The position numbers and the translations under genes are program-made. Positions 2,039-10,646 of a DNA stretch of 41,231 bases are shown piece by piece. The notes below the pieces were generated by a model. It searched no databases and was not told the DNA's origin. It was given only the letters and a program-made list of their open reading frames with translations. Within the stretch, counting starts at the first letter, position 1; each line of letters begins with the position of its first letter. The stretch comes from Armatimonadia bacterium (GTDB lineage Bacteria; Armatimonadota; Zipacnadia; Zipacnadales; UBA11051): the NCBI GenBank assembly GCA_039683575.1, contig JBDKRC010000003.1, positions 1-41,231 of the forward strand, in the 5' to 3' direction.

Positions 2039-3511
2039 TCAGTTCCCCGTTCCCTTCCGCAAACTCTCGTGCGGCCCCACCGGAACCAACCCTACCGGGG
2101 GATACGCGTTGTCGATCGTGTCCTCTGTATCGTGGACATATTCCCACAGCCGCGCCAGCAACTGCCGCCTGACCTTCTCCAGCTTGGGCTCATCAATGAT
2201 ATTATGCATCTCCCACGGGTCTTCTTCCAGGTCATAGAGCTCATCGAAGTCGAAGCCGTTGAAGATGTACTTATACCGCCCCATCCGCATGATCCGCTGG
2301 CTGTAGTACAACTCCACGCCGTTCATCTGCGTGAACAGCTCCTGCCGCTGGCCATCAGCCTCCTGCCCCGTCAGCAACGGTAGCAGGCTCGTGGCATCAG
2401 TCTCGGGCAAGGCCTCAGCCCCGCCCATCTCCAGAATCGTCGGGCACAGGTCCAGAATCCGCGCTATCGACCCGATCTCCCGCCCCGGCTCCGCAATCCC
2501 TTGCGGCCATCGCATCAGAAGCGGTATGTGGTACGATCCCTCGTAAGGCGCCACGCCCTTGAGGAAGAGCCCGTGCTCGCCCAGCAGGTCCCCGTGGTCG
2601 CTCGTGCGGATGACCAGCGTGTTATCCGCCTGCCCGGTTTCCTCAAGCGCCTGCAGCACCATCCCCATGAACTCGTCCATCATGGCGCACAGGGCCCAGA
2701 AGCGGCTGATCGAGAGCCTGATCTGGTCCTCGTCAAGCTGGTCCCACAGCATCCGGCGCTGGCGCGTGTACACCCGCGGCCTGTCGCTCATGTCATCGCG
2801 GAAGTTCGGCGGCAGCGGCACTGTCGCCGGGTCTATCAGGTCTGCATAGTCCTCCGGCACCACGTACGGGTCATGCGGCGTCACCCAGCCCAGGTACGTG
2901 CACCACGGCCGCCCCTCTTCGGCCAGGCGGTGGATCATGTCCACCGTATCCTTCGTCTGGCGGTACTCCAGCGTCTCACGGGAAGTCCTGGGCGCGACCC
3001 CCGACAGCAGCGAATCCGGCCACCCATCACGCGGCACCCAGACACAGTCGTGCAATCCGCCCTTGGTCTCTGCGTCCCGCGGCCCCGGCGGCGGCCCCTC
3101 CCAAGTCACCCGCCCATGCGTACCCGTCGCGGTGACCTGCCCAAACTCCTCCCAGCCCCGGTCCTTCGGGTCCTCCTCGGCGCTGACGTGCCACTTGCCG
3201 GTATATCGCATGACATATCCGGCCTCCGCCAGGTTCTCTGACCACGTCCGCACACCCGGATAGAGCCCCCGGTGCAGAGCGGTCGGATTGCTGACATTGT
3301 TGAAGACGCCATGGCGGCTAGGGTACATTCCCGTCATGAAGCTGGCCCGCGAGGGGCAGCAGTGCGTACAGACCGTATAGGCGCCTGTGAAGCGCACTCC
3401 CTCCTCCGCCAGCCGCGTGGCATTCGGCGTAGGACAAGGATGCGCCGGATCAAGCACCTCCGCCCGCTCGTGATCAGACATGATGATGAGGATGTTCGGT
3501 CTATCGGGCAT
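2039..3511 (-). CDS. Sulfatase (formylglycine-dependent, choline-sulfatase-like)
   Basis: PNILIIMSD, CxPxR motif (CCPSRAS), GKWH, PHDP, TSDHGD, ELYDLEEDPWE. Confidence 0.92.
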   Translation of the reverse strand: MPDRPNILIIMSDHERAEVLDPAHPCPTPNATRLAEEGVRFTGAYTVCTHCCPSRASFMTGMYPSRHGVFNNVSNPTALHRGLYPGVRTWSENLAEAGYVMRYTGKWHVSAEEDPKDRGWEEFGQVTATGTHGRVTWEGPPPGPRDAETKGGLHDCVWVPRDGWPDSLLSGVAPRTSRETLEYRQTKDTVDMIHRLAEEGRPWCTYLGWVTPHDPYVVPEDYADLIDPATVPLPPNFRDDMSDRPRVYTRQRRMLWDQLDEDQIRLSISRFWALCAMMDEFMGMVLQALEETGQADNTLVIRTSDHGDLLGEHGLFLKGVAPYEGSYHIPLLMRWPQGIAEPGREIGSIARILDLCPTILEMGGAEALPETDATSLLPLLTGQEADGQRQELFTQMNGVELYYSQRIMRMGRYKYIFNGFDFDELYDLEEDPWEMHNIIDEPKLEKVRRQLLARLWEYVHDTEDTIDNAYPPVGLVPVGPHESLRKGTGN

Positions 3512-3552
3512 CGGTGTACCTCAGTAATCCGCAAGCGCTCTGGCCGTTTCCG

Positions 3553-3631
3553 CTGTAGGGCGGGGGCTTGTACCCCGCCGCTCGGGCTATCACAGATAAC
3601 GGCCGGCGGGGTACAAGCCCCCGCCCTACAG
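3553..3631. repeat. GTAG-type REP doublet, perfect 28-bp inverted repeat
   Basis: ctgtagggcgggggcttgtaccccgccg (3553-3580) and its exact reverse complement (3604-3631). Confidence 0.85.
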
Positions 3632-3734
3632 ACACCTCACCGCCCAAAGAAGGAACTCTATCACCGCACAGCGAACCTTCTCGCCGCCCCTTCTGAGGGC
3701 AGCAAGCGAACTAGACAGGTGGTGCGGCGTCTCC

Positions 3735-4433
3735 ATGTCCATGAATACTTACGGCAAAACGTGGCTCTGCAGCGTGATGCTGCTGTTGGCGGCCTTTGCG
3801 CTTGGCGGCTGTCCGAAGCCGCAGCCCCCGCCGCCGGTCGTGGACCAGGCCTCGCCCGCGCCGCCACCCCCTGCCGCGCCGGCAGACACGACTGCGCGCG
3901 AGAACGCGCGCGAGGAGAGCAAACCAGTGCAAGGTGACAAGACGGTACTCGTGATCAAGACGGACAAGGGCGACATCACTGCCGAACTCTTCGACAAACA
4001 GACCCCCATCACAGCCGGCAACTTCCTGCTGCTGGCCGAGGAAGGCTTCTACAACGGCCTGACCTTCCACCGGGTAGTCCCCGGCTTCGTGATCCAGGGC
4101 GGCGACCCCGAGGGTACTGGCGCCGGCGGCCCCGGCTTCACCATCCCGGATGAGACCGGCAAGGGCTTCAAGCACGAGCGCGGCATCCTGTCCATGGCCA
4201 AGACCGCCGCCCCCGACAGCGCCGGCAGCCAGTTCTTCGTCATCATTGGCCCGCGCGAAGCCGTCAGCCACCTCGACCGTGACTTCTCGCCCTTCGGCAA
4301 GGTAACCGAGGGCATGGACGTAGCCGACAAGATCAGGCAGGGCGACAAGATCAACGAGATCGAGGTCAAGAGCGTCTCCCCCGACGCCGAGGCCGCCCGC
4401 AAAGCCGCCAAGGCCGCTCGCAAGACGAAGTGA
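3735..4433 (+). CDS. Cyclophilin-type peptidyl-prolyl cis-trans isomerase, lipoprotein
   Basis: Lipobox LGGC, Pro-rich linker, FYNGLTFHRVVPGFVIQGGDP, SMA...SAGSQFF. Confidence 0.93.
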   Translation: MSMNTYGKTWLCSVMLLLAAFALGGCPKPQPPPPVVDQASPAPPPPAAPADTTARENAREESKPVQGDKTVLVIKTDKGDITAELFDKQTPITAGNFLLLAEEGFYNGLTFHRVVPGFVIQGGDPEGTGAGGPGFTIPDETGKGFKHERGILSMAKTAAPDSAGSQFFVIIGPREAVSHLDRDFSPFGKVTEGMDVADKIRQGDKINEIEVKSVSPDAEAARKAAKAARKTK

Positions 4434-4470
4434 GCTCGTCATGCTGAGGAGCGGCGGTGAGCCCGCCTCT

Positions 4471-4591
4471 TGTCATGCTGAGGAGCGCCGTTTGCGACGA
4501 AGCATCTCCGCCGCTTACGCTACATCGAAAGCCCATACGAAGCATCTCGCGTCATTCCGGCGCGAGATGCTTCGCTTCGCTCAGCATGACA
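4471..4591. repeat. TGTCAT-family REP-like inverted repeat
   Basis: tgtcatgctgag...gaagcatctc / gagatgcttcgcttcgctcagcatgaca; a partial extra left arm lies near 4437. Confidence 0.85.
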
Positions 4592-4629
4592 GGGTTTCAG
4601 TCGCAACCGGAACATGTCTCGCAGTTGAG

Positions 4630-4658
4630 TCCGGCACACGGAGTGTGCCTACCACGCG
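4630..4658. repeat. GTAG-type REP single copy
   Basis: Exact 29-nt reverse complement of 1959-1987. Confidence 0.75.
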
Positions 4659-4662
4659 GCGA

Positions 4663-5994
4663 CTATCCGCACCCCTCCGCATGGCCCTCCAGCGCCTTAT
4701 ACGTCGAGTACGGGCACCCCTGCGTCATCGTCAGCTTCCCTCCGGGGGGCGCCACCGGGCTGCAGCCGCACAAGAACGCCCGCGGGTCCTGCCCTAGTTC
4801 ATCCTTCAACTCATCCCACATCTCCCGCGACTCGGTGCTGAGGAAGAGCTTCACATCCTGGTTCCACCGCCGCGCCTCGCGGATCAGGTGCTGGTAGATC
4901 TCCTTGCGCACGTGGTGCGGGAAGGGCGCAACCACATTCCCCTCCATCTCCTCCGCCGCGTCCTGCGCCGCCTTCACAAACTCAGGATCAAGCATCTCGA
5001 GCCCATCCAGCCGCTGCCCCACTGCCTCCAGCGACATCCACATGATCACACCAAACCCCAGCGACTCGGGCTGTGAGACCTGCAGCGCGTACTCGATGGC
5101 CCTCGCATACTCCTCCCGCCAATTCCGGATCGGGATGGTCGGCTTGAACTTGTACCGCACCGACACTCCCATGTCGTTGAGCTTCTTACCCGCGTCAAAC
5201 CGGTCAAAGGCGTGCCCGGTTCCCTTCTCGATGTCCCGCGCGATGGTCTCGGTTGTTATGCTGAAGATGCCGATGAGCCGCTCGCGGTTGGGCAGGTCCG
5301 CGATCCAGTCCACATTTGCCCCCGCCGAGTGGAAGTACCCGTAGCGGTCATGCTCCGCCAGCTTTTTCAGGAACAGTTCGAAGGTGCCGTGCTCTGGCTC
5401 CAGCGTGATCTCATCGCCGCTCCAGCCGATCATGCGGAAGCACTTCTGCCAGGGGAACTGCGCGATGGTCCGGGGTACGACGACATCCATGTATTCCTCG
5501 AGATTCGTCGCGACGGTGATGTAGGCACCGCGCTTGCCGAACCCACAGTACCGGCACCCATGCGGGCAGCCGACCATCGTGCCGAAGTCCCACGTCGGCC
5601 AGCACACCCGGTTCTGCTGGTAGTCATTGGCGTACCTGTGGTACTCCTGGATCGGCTTGAAGTTGCCGAGGATGTGGTTGATGACCCCCTCCGGCACTCC
5701 CTCGCCAAGCCGCGCCATCACGTCATCTATCGGCTGCGGCTCCTCAGCCACCGACAGCTTGGTGAACAGCAGCGGCCGGAGATACCCCGCCGGAACGTCG
5801 TCCGGCTTCTCCGCCTCCGCCCAAAGCGTCACCAGCTCTCGCGCCACATCCCCCATGTTCCCGTCATTGATCCAGACTATCTTACCATCCGCCGGCGTAA
5901 CGGCCGCCAGCATCCGCTCCATCCGCCGCACCTGCCGTGGGTCATCCTGAACCGACTCGTGCGCATAGACCTTCAGCGGCCGCAGTGGGTACAT
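4663..5994 (-). CDS. Radical SAM protein, spore photoproduct lyase-like family
   Basis: CxxxCxxC (GCPHGCRYC); SplB-like elements (IEKGT..DRFDAGKKL, PTIPIRNW) and C-terminal CGC. The SplB-like subfamily call is inference. Confidence 0.75.
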   Translation of the reverse strand: MYPLRPLKVYAHESVQDDPRQVRRMERMLAAVTPADGKIVWINDGNMGDVARELVTLWAEAEKPDDVPAGYLRPLLFTKLSVAEEPQPIDDVMARLGEGVPEGVINHILGNFKPIQEYHRYANDYQQNRVCWPTWDFGTMVGCPHGCRYCGFGKRGAYITVATNLEEYMDVVVPRTIAQFPWQKCFRMIGWSGDEITLEPEHGTFELFLKKLAEHDRYGYFHSAGANVDWIADLPNRERLIGIFSITTETIARDIEKGTGHAFDRFDAGKKLNDMGVSVRYKFKPTIPIRNWREEYARAIEYALQVSQPESLGFGVIMWMSLEAVGQRLDGLEMLDPEFVKAAQDAAEEMEGNVVAPFPHHVRKEIYQHLIREARRWNQDVKLFLSTESREMWDELKDELGQDPRAFLCGCSPVAPPGGKLTMTQGCPYSTYKALEGHAEGCG

Positions 5995-6068
5995 AGAAAC
6001 CTCTTTCCTCGTGCTTTACGCTTCACGCTGTGCGTCATGCCTGACGGCACCCATAGCCACCCACATAT

Positions 6069-6145
6069 TGTCATTCTGAGCGAAGCGAAGAATCTCTCCC
6101 GCTTCCGCACGCACGCGGAGATTCTTCGCTTCGCTCAGAATGACA
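6069..6145. repeat. TGTCAT-family REP-like perfect inverted repeat
   Basis: tgtcattctgagcgaagcgaagaatctc / gagattcttcgcttcgctcagaatgaca. Confidence 0.88.
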
Positions 6146-6174
6146 GTCCTTTACCGCCATACCCGTTCCCGCCG

Positions 6175-7116
6175 TCAAAAATGTATCTTCCCAATCTTCA
6201 GCCGCCCGCCTCTGAACAGGTTCACCATCAACACCGCCGTCGCGATCGAGTATAGCTTCGCCTCGGCGCTGTCTGCCCGTGAGGTCAACACCACCGGCGC
6301 CGCCGCCCCGACCAGCACTCCCGCGCTCTTTCCGCCGCACAGGAATGCGAAGGACTTGCTGAGGATGTTCCCCGACTCGATGTCCGGGCACACCAGAATG
6401 TCGCAGTCGCCCGCCACCTCGCCACTGATCTTCTTCACTTTCGCCGCATGCGGGTCTATGGCATTGTCCAGCGCGAAGGGCCCATCCACGATACAGTTCG
6501 GGAACTGTCCCCGACGCGCCATGGCCCCCAGCGCCCCTGCCTCCAGCGTCACCGGCATCTTCGGATCAACAAGCTCCACCGCCGCCAGCACGCCCACTTT
6601 TGGGCACTCGATCCCGAAGCAGTTCGCCAGGAACACCGCGTTCATGATGATGTCGGCCTTGGTCACGAGGTCGGGCGCGATATTCATTGCCCCATCGGTG
6701 ACGAAGGTGAACTTGCCGCGAAAGCCAGTCTCCAGGATGAAGACATGGCTCATGATGCTGCCGGTCCGCAGGCCCTGCTCCTTATTCAGAAGCGCGCGCA
6801 GGAAGTCGTCGGTATGGATCTGCCCCTTCATCAGGATATCCGCGCGTCCCTCTCGCACCGCCAGCACCGCCTGCGCCGCCGCCGCGAGGTCATTGGGCTG
6901 GTCCACGACGTCCGCCTGTGACAGGTCCAGCCCCACCTCCGCCGCCTGCGCCTCAATCTCCCGCGCCTTGCCAAAGAGCAGCGGCCGGGCGATATCCGCT
7001 GCCAGCGCATCCCTGACCGACTCCAGCACGCTCGCCTGCTCGGCCACAGCGACCGCAAGGGTCCGCACGGGGTGCTCTTTGGTGTGTTCCAGTACCTGCT
7101 CAAAGGTCGTGATCAT
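6175..7116 (-). CDS. ptb: Phosphate butyryl/acetyltransferase (PTA_PTB family)
   Basis: ADILMKG, TDGAMNIAP, VDGPFALDNAI, PDIESGNIL, PVVLTSRADS; ATG overlaps the upstream stop (TGATG). Confidence 0.88.
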   Translation of the reverse strand: MITTFEQVLEHTKEHPVRTLAVAVAEQASVLESVRDALAADIARPLLFGKAREIEAQAAEVGLDLSQADVVDQPNDLAAAAQAVLAVREGRADILMKGQIHTDDFLRALLNKEQGLRTGSIMSHVFILETGFRGKFTFVTDGAMNIAPDLVTKADIIMNAVFLANCFGIECPKVGVLAAVELVDPKMPVTLEAGALGAMARRGQFPNCIVDGPFALDNAIDPHAAKVKKISGEVAGDCDILVCPDIESGNILSKSFAFLCGGKSAGVLVGAAAPVVLTSRADSAEAKLYSIATAVLMVNLFRGGRLKIGKIHF

Positions 7117-7916
7117 CAACGCCTCCCTGCGTATTCGCCCTCCGCCAGCGGCGGCCCGTCACCCATCTTCACCCGCACCTGCCACGGCCACCTCTCACCT
7201 CGGACCCCAAACCACTTCACAACGTCCCCCACATACTTCTGCGCCTGTGCCTTGCTGAGGTCCTTGCCTGGTATCAGGTGCATCGTCCGCAGCGGCACAC
7301 ACGGCGGCGTCTCGCTGAAGATCGTGCCCTCAAAGCTGGTGCTCAGGTCCGCCCTCAGCGCCTCTACCACCACCTGCGCCCGCAAGCGCATCGCCAGCAC
7401 CCGGTCAACCGTCACGTAGCCATACACGCCCATCACTACAAGCAGCGCCATCAGCGCGGCCATGGCCCACTTCAAAAGCCCCAGCCTCTGCCGTCGCGCC
7501 TTTAGCAGCCTGTACCGCGCCACCCACCGCTCCGGATCAGCCGCCTGCCGCCGGAGTCTCGCCCGCAGCACCTCCACCGCCGCAGACGGCGCATCAAGCG
7601 CCGCTGGATTGGCGTAGGCCATCAACAGGATGGGCAGCAGCAGCACGAACGCTCCCAGAACCACACCACTCAGGGGCGCCAGTGCATACACGATCATCGC
7701 ATACATCAATGCCAGCGACGCCAGCGGCGCCCAGATGAACCACCGGTTTCGCGCCCCCTGCAGTAACTCCGCCTTCTCCGGCACGTCATCCGGGAGGGTC
7801 GCGATGAAGCGTTCAGAAACCCACGCCGCCAGCCACACTATCGCCACAAACTCGACCAGTACCGGGATGACCTGCAGAAAAGTCCTATTGATCTCGTTCA
7901 GAAATGCTGACGGCAT
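7116..7916 (-). CDS. Hypothetical membrane protein (~4 TM segments plus C-terminal soluble domain)
   Basis: 266-aa ORF with hydrophobic segments, translationally coupled at both ends. Confidence 0.75.
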   Translation of the reverse strand: MPSAFLNEINRTFLQVIPVLVEFVAIVWLAAWVSERFIATLPDDVPEKAELLQGARNRWFIWAPLASLALMYAMIVYALAPLSGVVLGAFVLLLPILLMAYANPAALDAPSAAVEVLRARLRRQAADPERWVARYRLLKARRQRLGLLKWAMAALMALLVVMGVYGYVTVDRVLAMRLRAQVVVEALRADLSTSFEGTIFSETPPCVPLRTMHLIPGKDLSKAQAQKYVGDVVKWFGVRGERWPWQVRVKMGDGPPLAEGEYAGRR

Positions 7917-8075
7917 CTACGCTCTCTTGAACAGTCGAATGATGGCCCCAACCAGCTTCCCAATTCCGGTCACGATCCACGTGACCGCCATAGCAAAGGG
8001 TCAGCCATACTCAGCATGGTCAAGGCTGCACGACGGCCCCTCGGACTGTTGCTCTTTCTCTTCATGTTCGTCCAT
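7917..8075 (-). CDS. Small protein with in-frame UGA, candidate selenoprotein: MDEHEEKEQQSEGPSCSLDHAEYG(U)PFAMAVTWIVTGIGKLVGAIIRLFKRA
   Basis: RBS GGAG(TGGT) before the ATG at 8075; TGA at codon 25 (8001-8003); the frame stays open to a TAG abutting the next ATG; SECIS-like hairpin downstream of the TGA. Confidence 0.5.
7967..7987 (-). promoter_or_regulatory. Putative bacterial SECIS hairpin
   Basis: mRNA CGGUCACG-UGGAU-CGUGACCG: an 8-bp perfect stem starting 13 nt after the UGA, with a G-containing loop. Confidence 0.45.
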
Positions 8076-8141
8076 CGCTACCACTCCGCCACTTCTTATT
8101 CGGTTTCACGCAGCAGCGTGGGCGGCTCGCCCACGCCGGCT

Positions 8142-8981
8142 CTACCTCGCCCTCTTCCGCAGCCGCTCCACCACTTCTTCAATCACCCAGTCCGGTGTCG
8201 AAGCCCCCGCCGTCACCCCCACTTTCCCAACTCCCGCAAACCACTCCGCCTGCAACTCCTTCGCCGTCTCGATATGGTACGTCGCCGTCCCAGTCTCCGC
8301 GCAGATTTGCGCCAGCCGCGTCGTATTCGCGCTGTGCTTGCCGCCGATGACCAGCATCAGGTCCACCTCGCGCGCCACGGTCAGAGACGCCTCCTGCCGC
8401 TTAGTGGTTGCATCACAGATCGTGTTCGCGACGCACAACTCCGTCACCAGCGGCAGCAGGTCATGCACCAGCGCCTGCAGGCTGTCGAGCCGCTGCGTCG
8501 TCTGGCACACCACTGCAATCTTCTTCTGGAGCGTCAGGTTGGCCAGGTCAGCCGCCGACTCGACGATAATGGCTTCCTCGCCGGTATGCTCGGCGATCCC
8601 CCGCGCCTCCGGGTGATCCGGCTCCCCCAGGACCAGCACCTGGTAGCCCTCAGCCTGGTACCGCGCCGCCTCTCGCTGCGCCCGCGCCACAAACGGGCAC
8701 GTCGCATCCACCACCGTCACTCCCCGCTCCCGAAGCTCGCAGATGGTCGCCGGCCCCGTCCCATGCGTCCGCAGCATCACTACCTCGCCCTCGCGTACGT
8801 CCTCCACATTCTGCGCCGCCCGCAACCCCTCGCTCTCCAGCCGCGCCACGACTTCCTTGTTATGGATCAGCGGCCCAAGGGTCGCCCCGTTGCCATGCTG
8901 CGCAATCGTCTCCTCGGCCATCTTCATGGCCCGGCGCACCCCAAAGCAAAACCCGCCCTCGCTAACCAGCACTATTTCCAT
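8142..8981 (-). CDS. ispH: 4-hydroxy-3-methylbut-2-enyl diphosphate reductase
   Basis: GFCFGVRRA, LIHN, DATCPFV, CQTT, NTICDATTKRQ, SANT, TAGASTP. Confidence 0.96.
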   Translation of the reverse strand: MEIVLVSEGGFCFGVRRAMKMAEETIAQHGNGATLGPLIHNKEVVARLESEGLRAAQNVEDVREGEVVMLRTHGTGPATICELRERGVTVVDATCPFVARAQREAARYQAEGYQVLVLGEPDHPEARGIAEHTGEEAIIVESAADLANLTLQKKIAVVCQTTQRLDSLQALVHDLLPLVTELCVANTICDATTKRQEASLTVAREVDLMLVIGGKHSANTTRLAQICAETGTATYHIETAKELQAEWFAGVGKVGVTAGASTPDWVIEEVVERLRKRAR

Positions 8982-9018
8982 TATCTGCCTGTCCTTCTCG
9001 CGAATGTGTCCCCACCCA

Positions 9019-9090
9019 GTAGCGCGGGCGGCTCGCCCGCAGCCGTCCACCGTTGCCGTTGCCGTGTGGAGCGCGGGCATCCTTGCCCGC
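9019..9090. repeat. Two REP-like palindromes
   Basis: gtagcgcgggcggctcgcccgc and ggagcgcgggcatccttgcccgc; related copies at about 8116-8136, 10673-10785 and 23899-23924. Confidence 0.65.
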
Positions 9091-9119
9091 AGCCGTTATC
9101 ACCGAGCAACCATCATCCC

Positions 9120-10646
9120 TCAGAAACTCGGATCATGCGGCGGCACCACCGGCCTTACTGGCTCCGCCTCATAAGGGACGAACTGGAACGCATATAGGTC
9201 GGCATCTTGCATCCGGAACCGCAGCCTCACCGGCCTGCCCGCCAGCCCCCGCAAGTCCCCGCCATTGCCGTTCCAGCGCACGATATGCCGCAGCGTGTCC
9301 CCGCGGATCACCGGACAGTCCTCCAACGCGTACCCCTCAATCACCGTCCCGTCGGCCTCCTGCACCTCCACCTGCACCCCCGCCGCGCCGCCGGTCTCCA
9401 CGTTCAGCGCCAGACACCCGCCCTCAAACACCAGTGGCTTGGTGACAGACTCCCCGCCGCCAAAGTCCGCATGAGCCGACACAAACCCATCGAGCCGCAG
9501 CGTATAGCGCCGTACCGCCGTCCCGATCCCCTCCCAATAGTCCTCGGTTGCATACAGCGACAGCTCAGGCGGGCAATCCGCCGTCTCCGAGGGCGTCTCC
9601 AGCATCCCCCAGAACACGAAGTTGTCGCCATAGACCCAGCTTCCACGGCTGCGCGGCCCCGGCCGGATGAACGCCTCCGACCACCTCTGGAAGCTCACTC
9701 CGTCGCGGCTGCTCATGAAGACAGCATCAGTCACGACCGTACCGTAGCGCGGGTGTACCGCCGCCCGGGCCATCCGCTCGTCCGTCCCCGGCAGGTCCAG
9801 CGTCGCGTTCGACCACCCGAGGTCATTGTAGCGCATCGGAAAGCCCATGAAGATGTGCGGCGCGCGGTAGTATGGTTGAACCTGGTTGGTGTAAAGCTGC
9901 TGGCGTGGCGCGCCGGGGTAGCTCAGCCACTCAAAGTCGGAGAAATGCAGGGGATCACGTGAGGTCGAGGTGCGAATGTCGCGGCAGCCGTCGCGGAAGT
10001 CCCGGTGGTACTCCCGGTACTCCGCGCGTACCGGGTCCCAGAACAGCAAGTTCTGCGAGTCCAGCGCCCCGTCGGTGAAGATCGGCTCGGTGCTCAGCAG
10101 TCGGAAGTTCACCCCATCCCCTGATCCCATCAAGTACATCCCATGGGGCTTGCTGCCCACCACTGCCATCTTGTACCGCTCATCCGCCGGGCAATCGGGG
10201 TTCGCATCAAGCAGCACCACGGCATGGGCCGGATCTGCCCCGACTTCCTCCGCGGTCTGCTGGGTCATGATTATGTTGTTGGCCCGCGAACCGTTGAACT
10301 CGTGCAGCCCGAGCTCCGGCCGCCGCCAGTTCAGGCCATCCTCGCTCTCGGCATAGCACATTACCTGCGGATGGTCCTCCCGCGCCTGCGCCGGGGGGCC
10401 GCTGTGGCGGTAGTGCAGCCCGTGGTAGTACATCCGGTAGATCGGCCCGTCCTTGAAGATGGACTGGTATGCCGACGCGTTCCCCTCCCACGGCGCATCC
10501 GTCCGGAACACGACCTCCCGCCGCACCGGATGATGCAGCCGCAACGCCAGATCCCCGGACTTGGCCTCCATCAGCGACTCGTCCACCAGCAGTTCCAGCC
10601 GCGACCCGATCTGCACCGGCTCCTGCGTCGTCACTGCTACCACCAT
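9120..10646 (-). CDS. Hypothetical protein, glycoside hydrolase-like beta-propeller (GH32/43/130-like)
   Basis: Asp-box-like repeats (YAESEDGLNW, SGDGVNF, SSRDGVSF), YRMYY, DSQN, LRLDGFVS, DADLYAF. Start trimmed to MVVAV because the upstream extension is REP DNA. Confidence 0.75.
   Translation of the reverse strand: MVVAVTTQEPVQIGSRLELLVDESLMEAKSGDLALRLHHPVRREVVFRTDAPWEGNASAYQSIFKDGPIYRMYYHGLHYRHSGPPAQAREDHPQVMCYAESEDGLNWRRPELGLHEFNGSRANNIIMTQQTAEEVGADPAHAVVLLDANPDCPADERYKMAVVGSKPHGMYLMGSGDGVNFRLLSTEPIFTDGALDSQNLLFWDPVRAEYREYHRDFRDGCRDIRTSTSRDPLHFSDFEWLSYPGAPRQQLYTNQVQPYYRAPHIFMGFPMRYNDLGWSNATLDLPGTDERMARAAVHPRYGTVVTDAVFMSSRDGVSFQRWSEAFIRPGPRSRGSWVYGDNFVFWGMLETPSETADCPPELSLYATEDYWEGIGTAVRRYTLRLDGFVSAHADFGGGESVTKPLVFEGGCLALNVETGGAAGVQVEVQEADGTVIEGYALEDCPVIRGDTLRHIVRWNGNGGDLRGLAGRPVRLRFRMQDADLYAFQFVPYEAEPVRPVVPPHDPSF

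Follow-up and report, generated by a model that had tools for sequence, protein, structure and literature searches.

The question raised by this locus is whether a TGA triplet that interrupts a very short reading frame ends a gene or encodes selenocysteine (Sec). The locus lies in a 41,231-nucleotide stretch of DNA from an Armatimonadia bacterium (the window), which is contig C3 of a 6.23-Mb assembly (G000) comprising 352 contigs, estimated to be 96% complete and with a genomic G+C content of 63%. On the minus strand of the window, an ATG at 8075-8073 opens 24 codons, MDEHEEKEQQSEGPSCSLDHAEYG, that run into a TGA at 8001..8003; a further 27 codons in the same frame, PFAMAVTWIVTGIGKLVGAIIRLFKRA, are closed by a TAG at 7919-7917, giving an open reading frame (ORF) of 52 codons (7917..8075) when the TGA is counted as residue 25. 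An initial annotation had proposed that this ORF encodes a membrane-associated micro-selenoprotein, with a stem-loop 3' of the TGA serving as the Sec insertion sequence (SECIS) and a 266-codon membrane gene beginning directly after the TAG. That layout proved exact: the ATG of the 266-codon ORF (7916) abuts the TAG in the same frame, and the 8-bp stem with its UGGAU loop, 13 nt past the UGA, is read in the sequence as described. Comparative evidence now supports the micro-selenoprotein proposal, whereas two of its details, a lower CCC/GGG stem and a membrane partner, did not hold.

We consider it probable, from the comparison of sequences, that the ORF is a gene missed by annotation, that its product is a selenoprotein of 52 residues, and that this product belongs to a family not described before and present in a few uncultured Armatimonadota. 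A new selenoprotein family is the most economical explanation because the TGA is conserved, the frame appears to be coding on both sides of it, a hairpin of the bacterial SECIS (bSECIS) type is frozen in sequence, and the ORF co-occurs with selB.

Conservation of the TGA and of the surrounding frame

A DNA search of 40 relatives gave matches in two of them, G004 (82%) and G003 (79%), confined in both to positions 8039-7963, where the TGA and the hairpin lie. A profile search of 67 genomes of the order returned four strong matches, G000, G002, G003 and G004 (E 2e-27 to 4e-34), each interrupted by one TGA, and the same four carriers were recovered from a 401-genome sample of the phylum. The latter sample also contained weak matches in 27 genomes (E 0.0017-0.05); ten of these loci were inspected and none has the motif or the helix described below. 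From the search of the order, a match in G042 (E 0.0065) was rejected, as it lies inside a 552-codon frame. Exact-pattern scans of genome and metagenome collections, with a degenerate pattern allowing TGA, TGC or TGT at the Sec column, yielded two genome and four metagenome loci; TGA was present in all six, and two of them (L026 and L027) are new variants. A strain variant was also found in a wastewater DNA run (X1). Altogether, TGA occupies the aligned column in 7/7 distinct DNA versions, namely the four genomes, which belong to two genera, the metagenome variants L026 and L027, and the X1 strain variant. The state of this column in homologues, which the initial annotation had singled out for checking, is therefore TGA throughout, with no other residue and with conservation on both sides.

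The homologous ORFs of G002, G003, G004, L026 and L027 have 54-59 codons and the same layout as the ORF in the window. The six aligned sequences share an initial M, then G-P-x-C-x-L-D-x3-Y-G-[TGA]-P-F-x2-x-V-T-W-I-V-T, followed by a hydrophobic stretch and a tail of basic character. The Cys in this motif, Cys16 (TGC, 8028..8030), which stands eight residues ahead of the Sec codon, is invariant in 6/6 aligned sequences and is also present in a truncated protein, P0004. This protein was one of three matched in a HMMER profile search of 1,835,955,588 protein cluster representatives (E<=0.001): P0004, a further family member of 49 residues encoded on an 833-nt contig, ends in ...Y-G exactly at the TGA column, while P0002 (26 residues) is the C-terminal half, called from an internal ATG. 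The third, P0003 (2191 residues), is spurious, with an hhalign probability of 6.9% and no Cys.

Substitutions at the locus follow the proposed frame on both sides of the TGA. The ratio of nonsynonymous to synonymous changes per site (pN/pS) was pooled over nine pairs of five sequences, leaving out the near-identical pair G002/L027. In the ORF frame it is 0.43 for the 23 codons upstream of the TGA and 0.54 for the 27 codons downstream; the two alternative frames give 1.17 and 1.64 upstream and 1.00 and 1.03 downstream. The ORF frame is free of stops in five sequences, while the other frames do contain them. The codons flanking the TGA vary synonymously (TAT/TAC, GGC/GGG, CCC/CCG, TTT/TTC), and third codon positions are variable at 22 of 24 upstream columns and 19 of 27 downstream columns. 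Similarity to relatives at the DNA level is detectable inside the ORF only; the flanks are unrelated genes, in three genomic contexts.

The X1 strain variant provides a comparison at closer range. It is 96% identical to the window, contains no indel and keeps both stops, and its 12 changed codons within the ORF comprise 5 synonymous and 7 conservative changes. Twelve substitutions fall in 7920-7959, the C-terminal half of the predicted helix, and none in the next 62 nt (7960-8021), which contain the hairpin, the spacer and the TGA.

The hairpin and the selenocysteine machinery

The hairpin (7967..7987, minus strand) pairs CGGUCACG (7987-7980) with CGUGACCG (7974-7967) around the loop UGGAU (7979-7975). 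The bSECIS model was taken from the legend of Fig. 2 of a 2026 review (PMC13188914), and the corresponding values were computed here rather than with bSECISearch itself. The model specifies an apical loop of 3-9 nt, an upper stem of 4-16 bp, a G in the first two loop positions, a distance of 16-37 nt from the UGA to the apical loop and a minimum free energy of <= -7.5 kcal/mol. The hairpin lies within every one of these published limits, having a 5-nt loop, an 8-bp stem, a G at loop position 2, 21 nt between UGA and loop, and a free energy of -12.9 kcal/mol. The 55 nt starting from the UGA fold with -22.1 kcal/mol (z -3.33), a value equalled by none of 200 shuffled sequences; for a 71-nt piece the z score is -2.98, and 1 of 200 shuffles was as good.

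Conservation of this structure is stricter than that of the ORF around it. In the five homologues folded, seven stem pairs are identical in 5/5, the eighth being C-G in G000 and U-G in the other four. None of the five degenerate third positions in the hairpin codons varies, compared with 38 of 41 in the rest of the ORF (Fisher p 4e-5), so that on these alignments there is a sharp RNA-level constraint exactly on the hairpin. Both the downstream frame and the hairpin, whose conservation the initial annotation had left to be checked, are thus kept. The consensus fold of the five homologues retains no predicted structure other than this one hairpin. The lower CCC/GGG stem that had been proposed beneath the hairpin appears in the single-sequence fold, is absent from the consensus, and has one of its Gs (7959) altered in the strain variant.

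The machinery for Sec insertion, another point raised at the outset, is complete in the source genome. Its selA, selD and selB genes score 543, 387 and 373 bits against NCBIfam models with cut-offs of 268, 125 and 242, respectively, and are clustered on contig C331 at 2902-7923; the sole tRNA-SeC(tca) gene of the genome follows directly after selB, at 8036-8131. In the three other carriers, G002, G003 and G004, both selB and selA exceed the cut-offs. Across the order, selB exceeds its cut-off in 23 of 67 genomes, and the other 19 selB-positive genomes are without the ORF. Within the taxonomic family, selB is present in 4 of 16 genomes, which are exactly the four ORF carriers, and in 0/12 non-carriers; since the carriers belong to two related genera, this co-occurrence counts as one or two independent events, not sixteen. 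Both G001, a genome of the same genus (90% complete, 4.0 Mb), and G005 are without selA, selB and the ORF.

Two further features of the sel region were observed. The SelD protein of G000 is of the Cys type (L009, about 1365-2907; G000:C331:4340-5882), and its frame also comprises a Cys-rich N-terminal extension, an acidic linker that is likewise rich in Cys and, at the C-terminus, a CMD/AhpD-like domain with a CxxC motif, making a SelD-AhpD-like fusion that sits inside the selA-selD-selB-selC cluster. A second likely selenoprotein gene lies 2.7 kb downstream of the sel operon (L050, 2788-4134; G000:C331:10787-12133, plus strand). Its product of ~448 residues has a signal-like N-terminus and belongs to no Pfam family, and its in-frame TGA stands 44 codons from the end (...M-G-F-G-U-G-G-G-C...). 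Among the homologous loci (L052, L053 and L054), G003 and G002 have TGA at the aligned column and G006, a genome without selB, has Cys, a classical Sec/Cys pair; in G003 a hairpin of 6 bp with a 5-nt loop begins 14 nt after the UGA, and the same sequence occurs in G002. Judged from these sequences, Sec decoding in the carrier genomes is likely to have another client in the ~448-residue protein.

Other potential clients were sought among known families. None of the G000 members of PF00384, PF00578, PF00085, PF08534 and PF02627 has an internal stop, and a family search for PF10262 gave no match in G000. Home-made scans of this genome for TGA-interrupted genes returned mostly adjacent same-frame genes or antisense frames and are unusable as a census; the first of them recovered the small ORF among its 44 candidates.

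Decoding of the UGA and rival explanations

The data presented above have led us to favor a model in which a ribosome would start at the ATG (8075), which is preceded at a distance of 8 nt by a Shine-Dalgarno-like GGAG (8084..8087, minus strand) of presumed function. In the homologues, G004 has GGGAG 9 nt ahead of its ATG, and G003 and G002 have a weaker match. At the UGA (8003-8001), the coding-region hairpin (7987-7967) would recruit SelB-GTP-Sec-tRNA(Sec), as expected from the known bacterial mechanism; Sec would then be inserted in place of termination, and translation would continue to the TAG at 7919-7917. Elsewhere in G000, TGA serves as an ordinary stop: the 266-codon ORF itself ends in one. 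A promoter and terminator consensus scan of 7000-9200 found none of either.

Several observations weigh against a selenoprotein. Nearly all selenoproteins have Cys homologues according to PMC13188914. Here no full-length Cys form was found among the 1,835,955,588 cluster representatives (E<=0.001) or by word-indexed search, no TGC or TGT form in the pattern scans, and none in the 401 phylum genomes; the ORF therefore does not pass the usual test of a Sec/Cys pair. The family comprises just ~7 distinct sequences from two sister genera, and perhaps no more than one or two independent events in evolution underlie its co-occurrence with selB. The stem shows no compensatory covariation, because the hairpin is invariant; one pair alternates, C-G versus U-G. 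A search of Rfam at E<=10 over 7850-8150 gave chance matches only, with no SECIS family among them. Codon-usage log-odds of the ORF are weakly positive (0.05 upstream and 0.14 downstream of the TGA), and the sole RNA run found (X20) covers 8367-8498, outside the ORF; two other runs, X4 and X6, cover part of ispH only. Hairpins of comparable quality also arise by chance: in a 1.56-Mb sample of G000, 8,932 of 44,749 TGA triplets (20%) precede a contiguous stem of at least 6 bp with bSECIS geometry, and 498 (1.1%) precede a hairpin of -12.9 kcal/mol or better. The ORF and hairpin features of a single sequence alone are not beyond chance, and the signal comes from conservation.

If the TGA were a true stop, the locus would specify an acidic leader of 24-26 residues and, from an internal ATG, a hydrophobic peptide of ~24 residues, with the hairpin acting as a translational regulator in the manner of leader-peptide coupling or a type I toxin. 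Such an ATG does lie 9 nt past the TGA in G000, G003 and G004, with the hairpin just 3' of it; gene callers have called the C-terminal half from this ATG (P0002) and the N-terminal half up to the stop (P0004); and a PIN-domain gene adjoins the ORF in G002, G003 and L027. This arrangement nevertheless seems improbable to us. At the position of the ATG, G002 has GCC and L027 has ACC; in both, the sole further in-frame start is a GTG inside the hairpin, and the downstream half is therefore not a separate ATG-started ORF. Moreover, the Pro-Phe pair encoded ahead of the ATG is kept while its codons change synonymously, and the finding of the element only in genomes with selA and selB is not predicted by a model of this kind.

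Conservation of one frame on both sides of the TGA would equally be expected if the UGA were read through without Sec, the hairpin stimulating near-cognate decoding (as Trp, Cys or Arg) to yield a selenium-free membrane peptide. A sense codon would be simpler in that case, yet none occurs at the column in the 7 DNA versions; the hairpin fits SelB-type geometry, and the co-occurrence with selA and selB within the family is strict (4/4 carriers, 0/12 non-carriers), which together render such read-through very improbable. The weak composition-based coding score, in a genome where open frames are common at 63% G+C, would be accommodated by a locus that is not protein-coding at all, either a structured RNA that is conserved or the fragment of a gene in decay, the frame being a by-product of high G+C. 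This last explanation is hard to credit in view of the frame-specific substitution (pN/pS of 0.43-0.54 in one frame only) and of conservation that spans the ORF from ATG to stop, and no further, in three genomic contexts; nor did Rfam or the consensus fold offer any conserved structure beyond the one hairpin.

The predicted product and its place among known systems

Returning to the ORF as a selenoprotein gene, codons 1-24 (8004..8075) specify an acidic, probably disordered N-terminal segment that ends in the conserved G-P-x-C-x-L-D-x3-Y-G; codons 26-46 (7938..8000) a hydrophobic helix, predicted to be a transmembrane segment; and codons 47-52 (7920..7937) a basic C-terminal tail, RLFKRA. The codons that form the hairpin also encode A-V-T-W-I-V-T-G, the start of the helix. 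The net charge before Sec is -7 in the G000 product and -3 to -4 in homologues, and the best 19-residue Kyte-Doolittle window scores 1.81 in G000 and 1.83-2.30 in homologues; all homologues have 3-6 Lys/Arg residues after the hydrophobic window, with varying tail length and stop position. AlphaFold2, run on a 6-row alignment, places a single helix at residues 25-51, with a predicted local distance difference test score (pLDDT) of 87-88 over residues 31-50, 47-50 over the N-terminal tail (residues 1-20) and 67 on average; the model shows nothing on the Cys/Sec loop. The product is most likely to consist of an acidic disordered N-terminal tail with Cys-x8-Sec, one transmembrane helix from Sec onwards and a basic C-terminal tail, much as had been read from the sequence initially.

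By the positive-inside rule, a basic tail is expected to be cytoplasmic. The C-terminal tail would then be in the cytoplasm, and the acidic N-terminal tail, together with Cys16 and Sec25, would lie on the outer side of the cytoplasmic membrane, an N-out/C-in topology that we infer from the distribution of charges. With low confidence, the Cys16-Sec25 pair could be a selenenylsulfide redox site at the membrane interface or a site for binding soft metals. A bolder and doubtful extension is that of a microprotein family that is Sec-obligate and has lacked a Cys form throughout its history, in which a selenol would sit at the outer lipid-water interface and the SECIS would be the very sequence coding for the membrane anchor. 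Such a protein would provide a minimal membrane-tethered site for selenium redox or metal chemistry, carried by a mobile free-standing gene, and might be one reason why the lineage keeps its Sec machinery.

The genomic surroundings of the ORF differ among carriers. In the window, it is flanked by ispH (LYTB, E 2e-92) and the 266-codon ORF (7116-7916, minus strand), whose terminal TGA overlaps the start of a PTA_PTB gene. In G002 and L027, a DegT-type aminotransferase gene, a 122-codon ORF and a PIN-domain gene precede the small ORF, and a DUF1559/N-methyl prepilin-like gene follows it; in G003, a heparinase-II/III-like gene follows, and a PIN-domain gene adjoins; in G004, it stands between two genes of opposite strand, encoding a metallophosphoesterase and a Memo-AMMECR1 fusion. 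No homologue of the 266-residue protein was found at E<=1e-5 in G002, G003 or G004; within the taxonomic family, 2 of 15 other genomes gave weak matches to it (30% identity), and both of these lack the small ORF. The 266-residue protein matches no Pfam family and, among NCBIfam models, gives only sub-threshold matches (anti-sigma factor, E 0.006). The suggestion that the small protein is co-translated with a membrane partner in the ispH-ptb region is not borne out, as neighbours differ by lineage and the 266-residue protein is without homologue in the other carriers; the small gene is instead a free-standing unit found at different loci, even within one genus.

Three other points on the ORF and its surroundings deserve mention. 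A gene for a radical SAM protein of 443 residues, of the spore-photoproduct-lyase type (PF04055, PF20903), lies 2 kb away (4663-5994, minus strand) and does not accompany the small ORF in other genomes. A selenobacteriocin-type precursor of a ribosomally synthesized and post-translationally modified peptide (TIGR04081 type) was considered for the small ORF and rejected, with no NCBIfam match and no conserved maturase neighbour. Just past the ispH stop, a G+C-rich palindrome (8113-8138, minus strand) forms an 11-bp stem with a 3-nt loop and no T-run; similar stretches of 30-35 nt occur on another G000 contig (L017) and in G002 (L016), and it may be a dispersed palindromic repeat.

No family model recognizes the product. 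Three members were compared with NCBIfam release 20 and Pfam-A at E<=1 and gave chance-level matches only (CcmD, 0.087; FANCI_HD1, 0.16), in line with the failure of the initial annotation to place the family. Literature searches, with supplementary tables outside their scope, turned up no account of a protein of this kind. PMC13188914 lists over 110 prokaryotic families of selenoproteins with models and Sec motifs, and a search of it by terms showed neither a Y-G-U-P-F-like motif nor a single-pass membrane microprotein. Most catalogued families were found through Sec/Cys pairs, and the authors of deep-Sep note that their method may miss selenoproteins without Cys homologues (PMC12013277). The small ORF would fall into such a blind spot, because it is too short for gene callers, is split by a UGA and is without a known Cys form. 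If confirmed, it would add a single-pass membrane microprotein to the bacterial selenoproteome, offer an example of codons that serve at once as a SECIS and as part of a transmembrane helix, and document selenoprotein use in the Armatimonadota, which have received little study; being so small, the product would also be a convenient model for Sec insertion and for selenol chemistry at a membrane surface.

The nearest parallels in gene structure are the selenoprotein genes of other bacteria, of which the formate dehydrogenase genes of E. coli are studied examples combining an in-frame UGA with a coding-region SECIS. Like them, the small ORF has an in-frame UGA, a stem-loop within the coding region, a G near the start of the loop, and a genome containing selA, selB, selD and tRNA-Sec. 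Unlike them, it has only 52 residues, the codons of its SECIS double as coding sequence for the beginning of a transmembrane helix, and it has neither a match to a family model nor a Cys form found so far.

Among membrane proteins, the transporter families that contain Sec are multi-pass, whereas the product predicted here is single-pass with Cys-x8-Sec spacing. The families of this kind listed in PMC13188914 (PF02411, PF04143, NF033936) share with it the placement of Sec in a bacterial membrane protein, possibly as a soft-metal or chalcogen ligand, and their models give no match at E<=1. The same review includes several very small soluble families and, in its table, the small bacterial selenoproteins KCU-star/DUF466 (NF033934), UXX-star, dual-CXXC (NF041197) and the CC/Se motif family (NF041239). 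The latter resemble the small ORF in being very short, of unknown function and discovered by comparative genomics, and differ from it in the lack of a model match and in their motifs (CU, UxxT, RxU and CxxU, as opposed to Y-G-U-P-F).

The predicted Sec lies mid-chain, at the start of the transmembrane helix, in contrast to the 'star' families, whose name suggests a Sec next to the C-terminus. The eukaryotic proteins SELENOK and SELENOS are also small single-pass membrane selenoproteins with a disordered Sec-bearing segment. Both, however, carry their Sec close to the C-terminus, facing the cytosol, and have an N-terminal transmembrane helix, and their SECIS is located in the 3' untranslated region; no sequence relation was detected or is expected. 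For the arrangement of charges, the closest resemblance is to proteins of the Pf3 coat type, which are small and adopt an N-out/C-in orientation: both have an acidic N-terminal tail, one hydrophobic helix and a basic C-terminal tail, and both dispense with a signal peptide. This likeness is a topological analogy and not homology, the topology of the small product being deduced from its charges.

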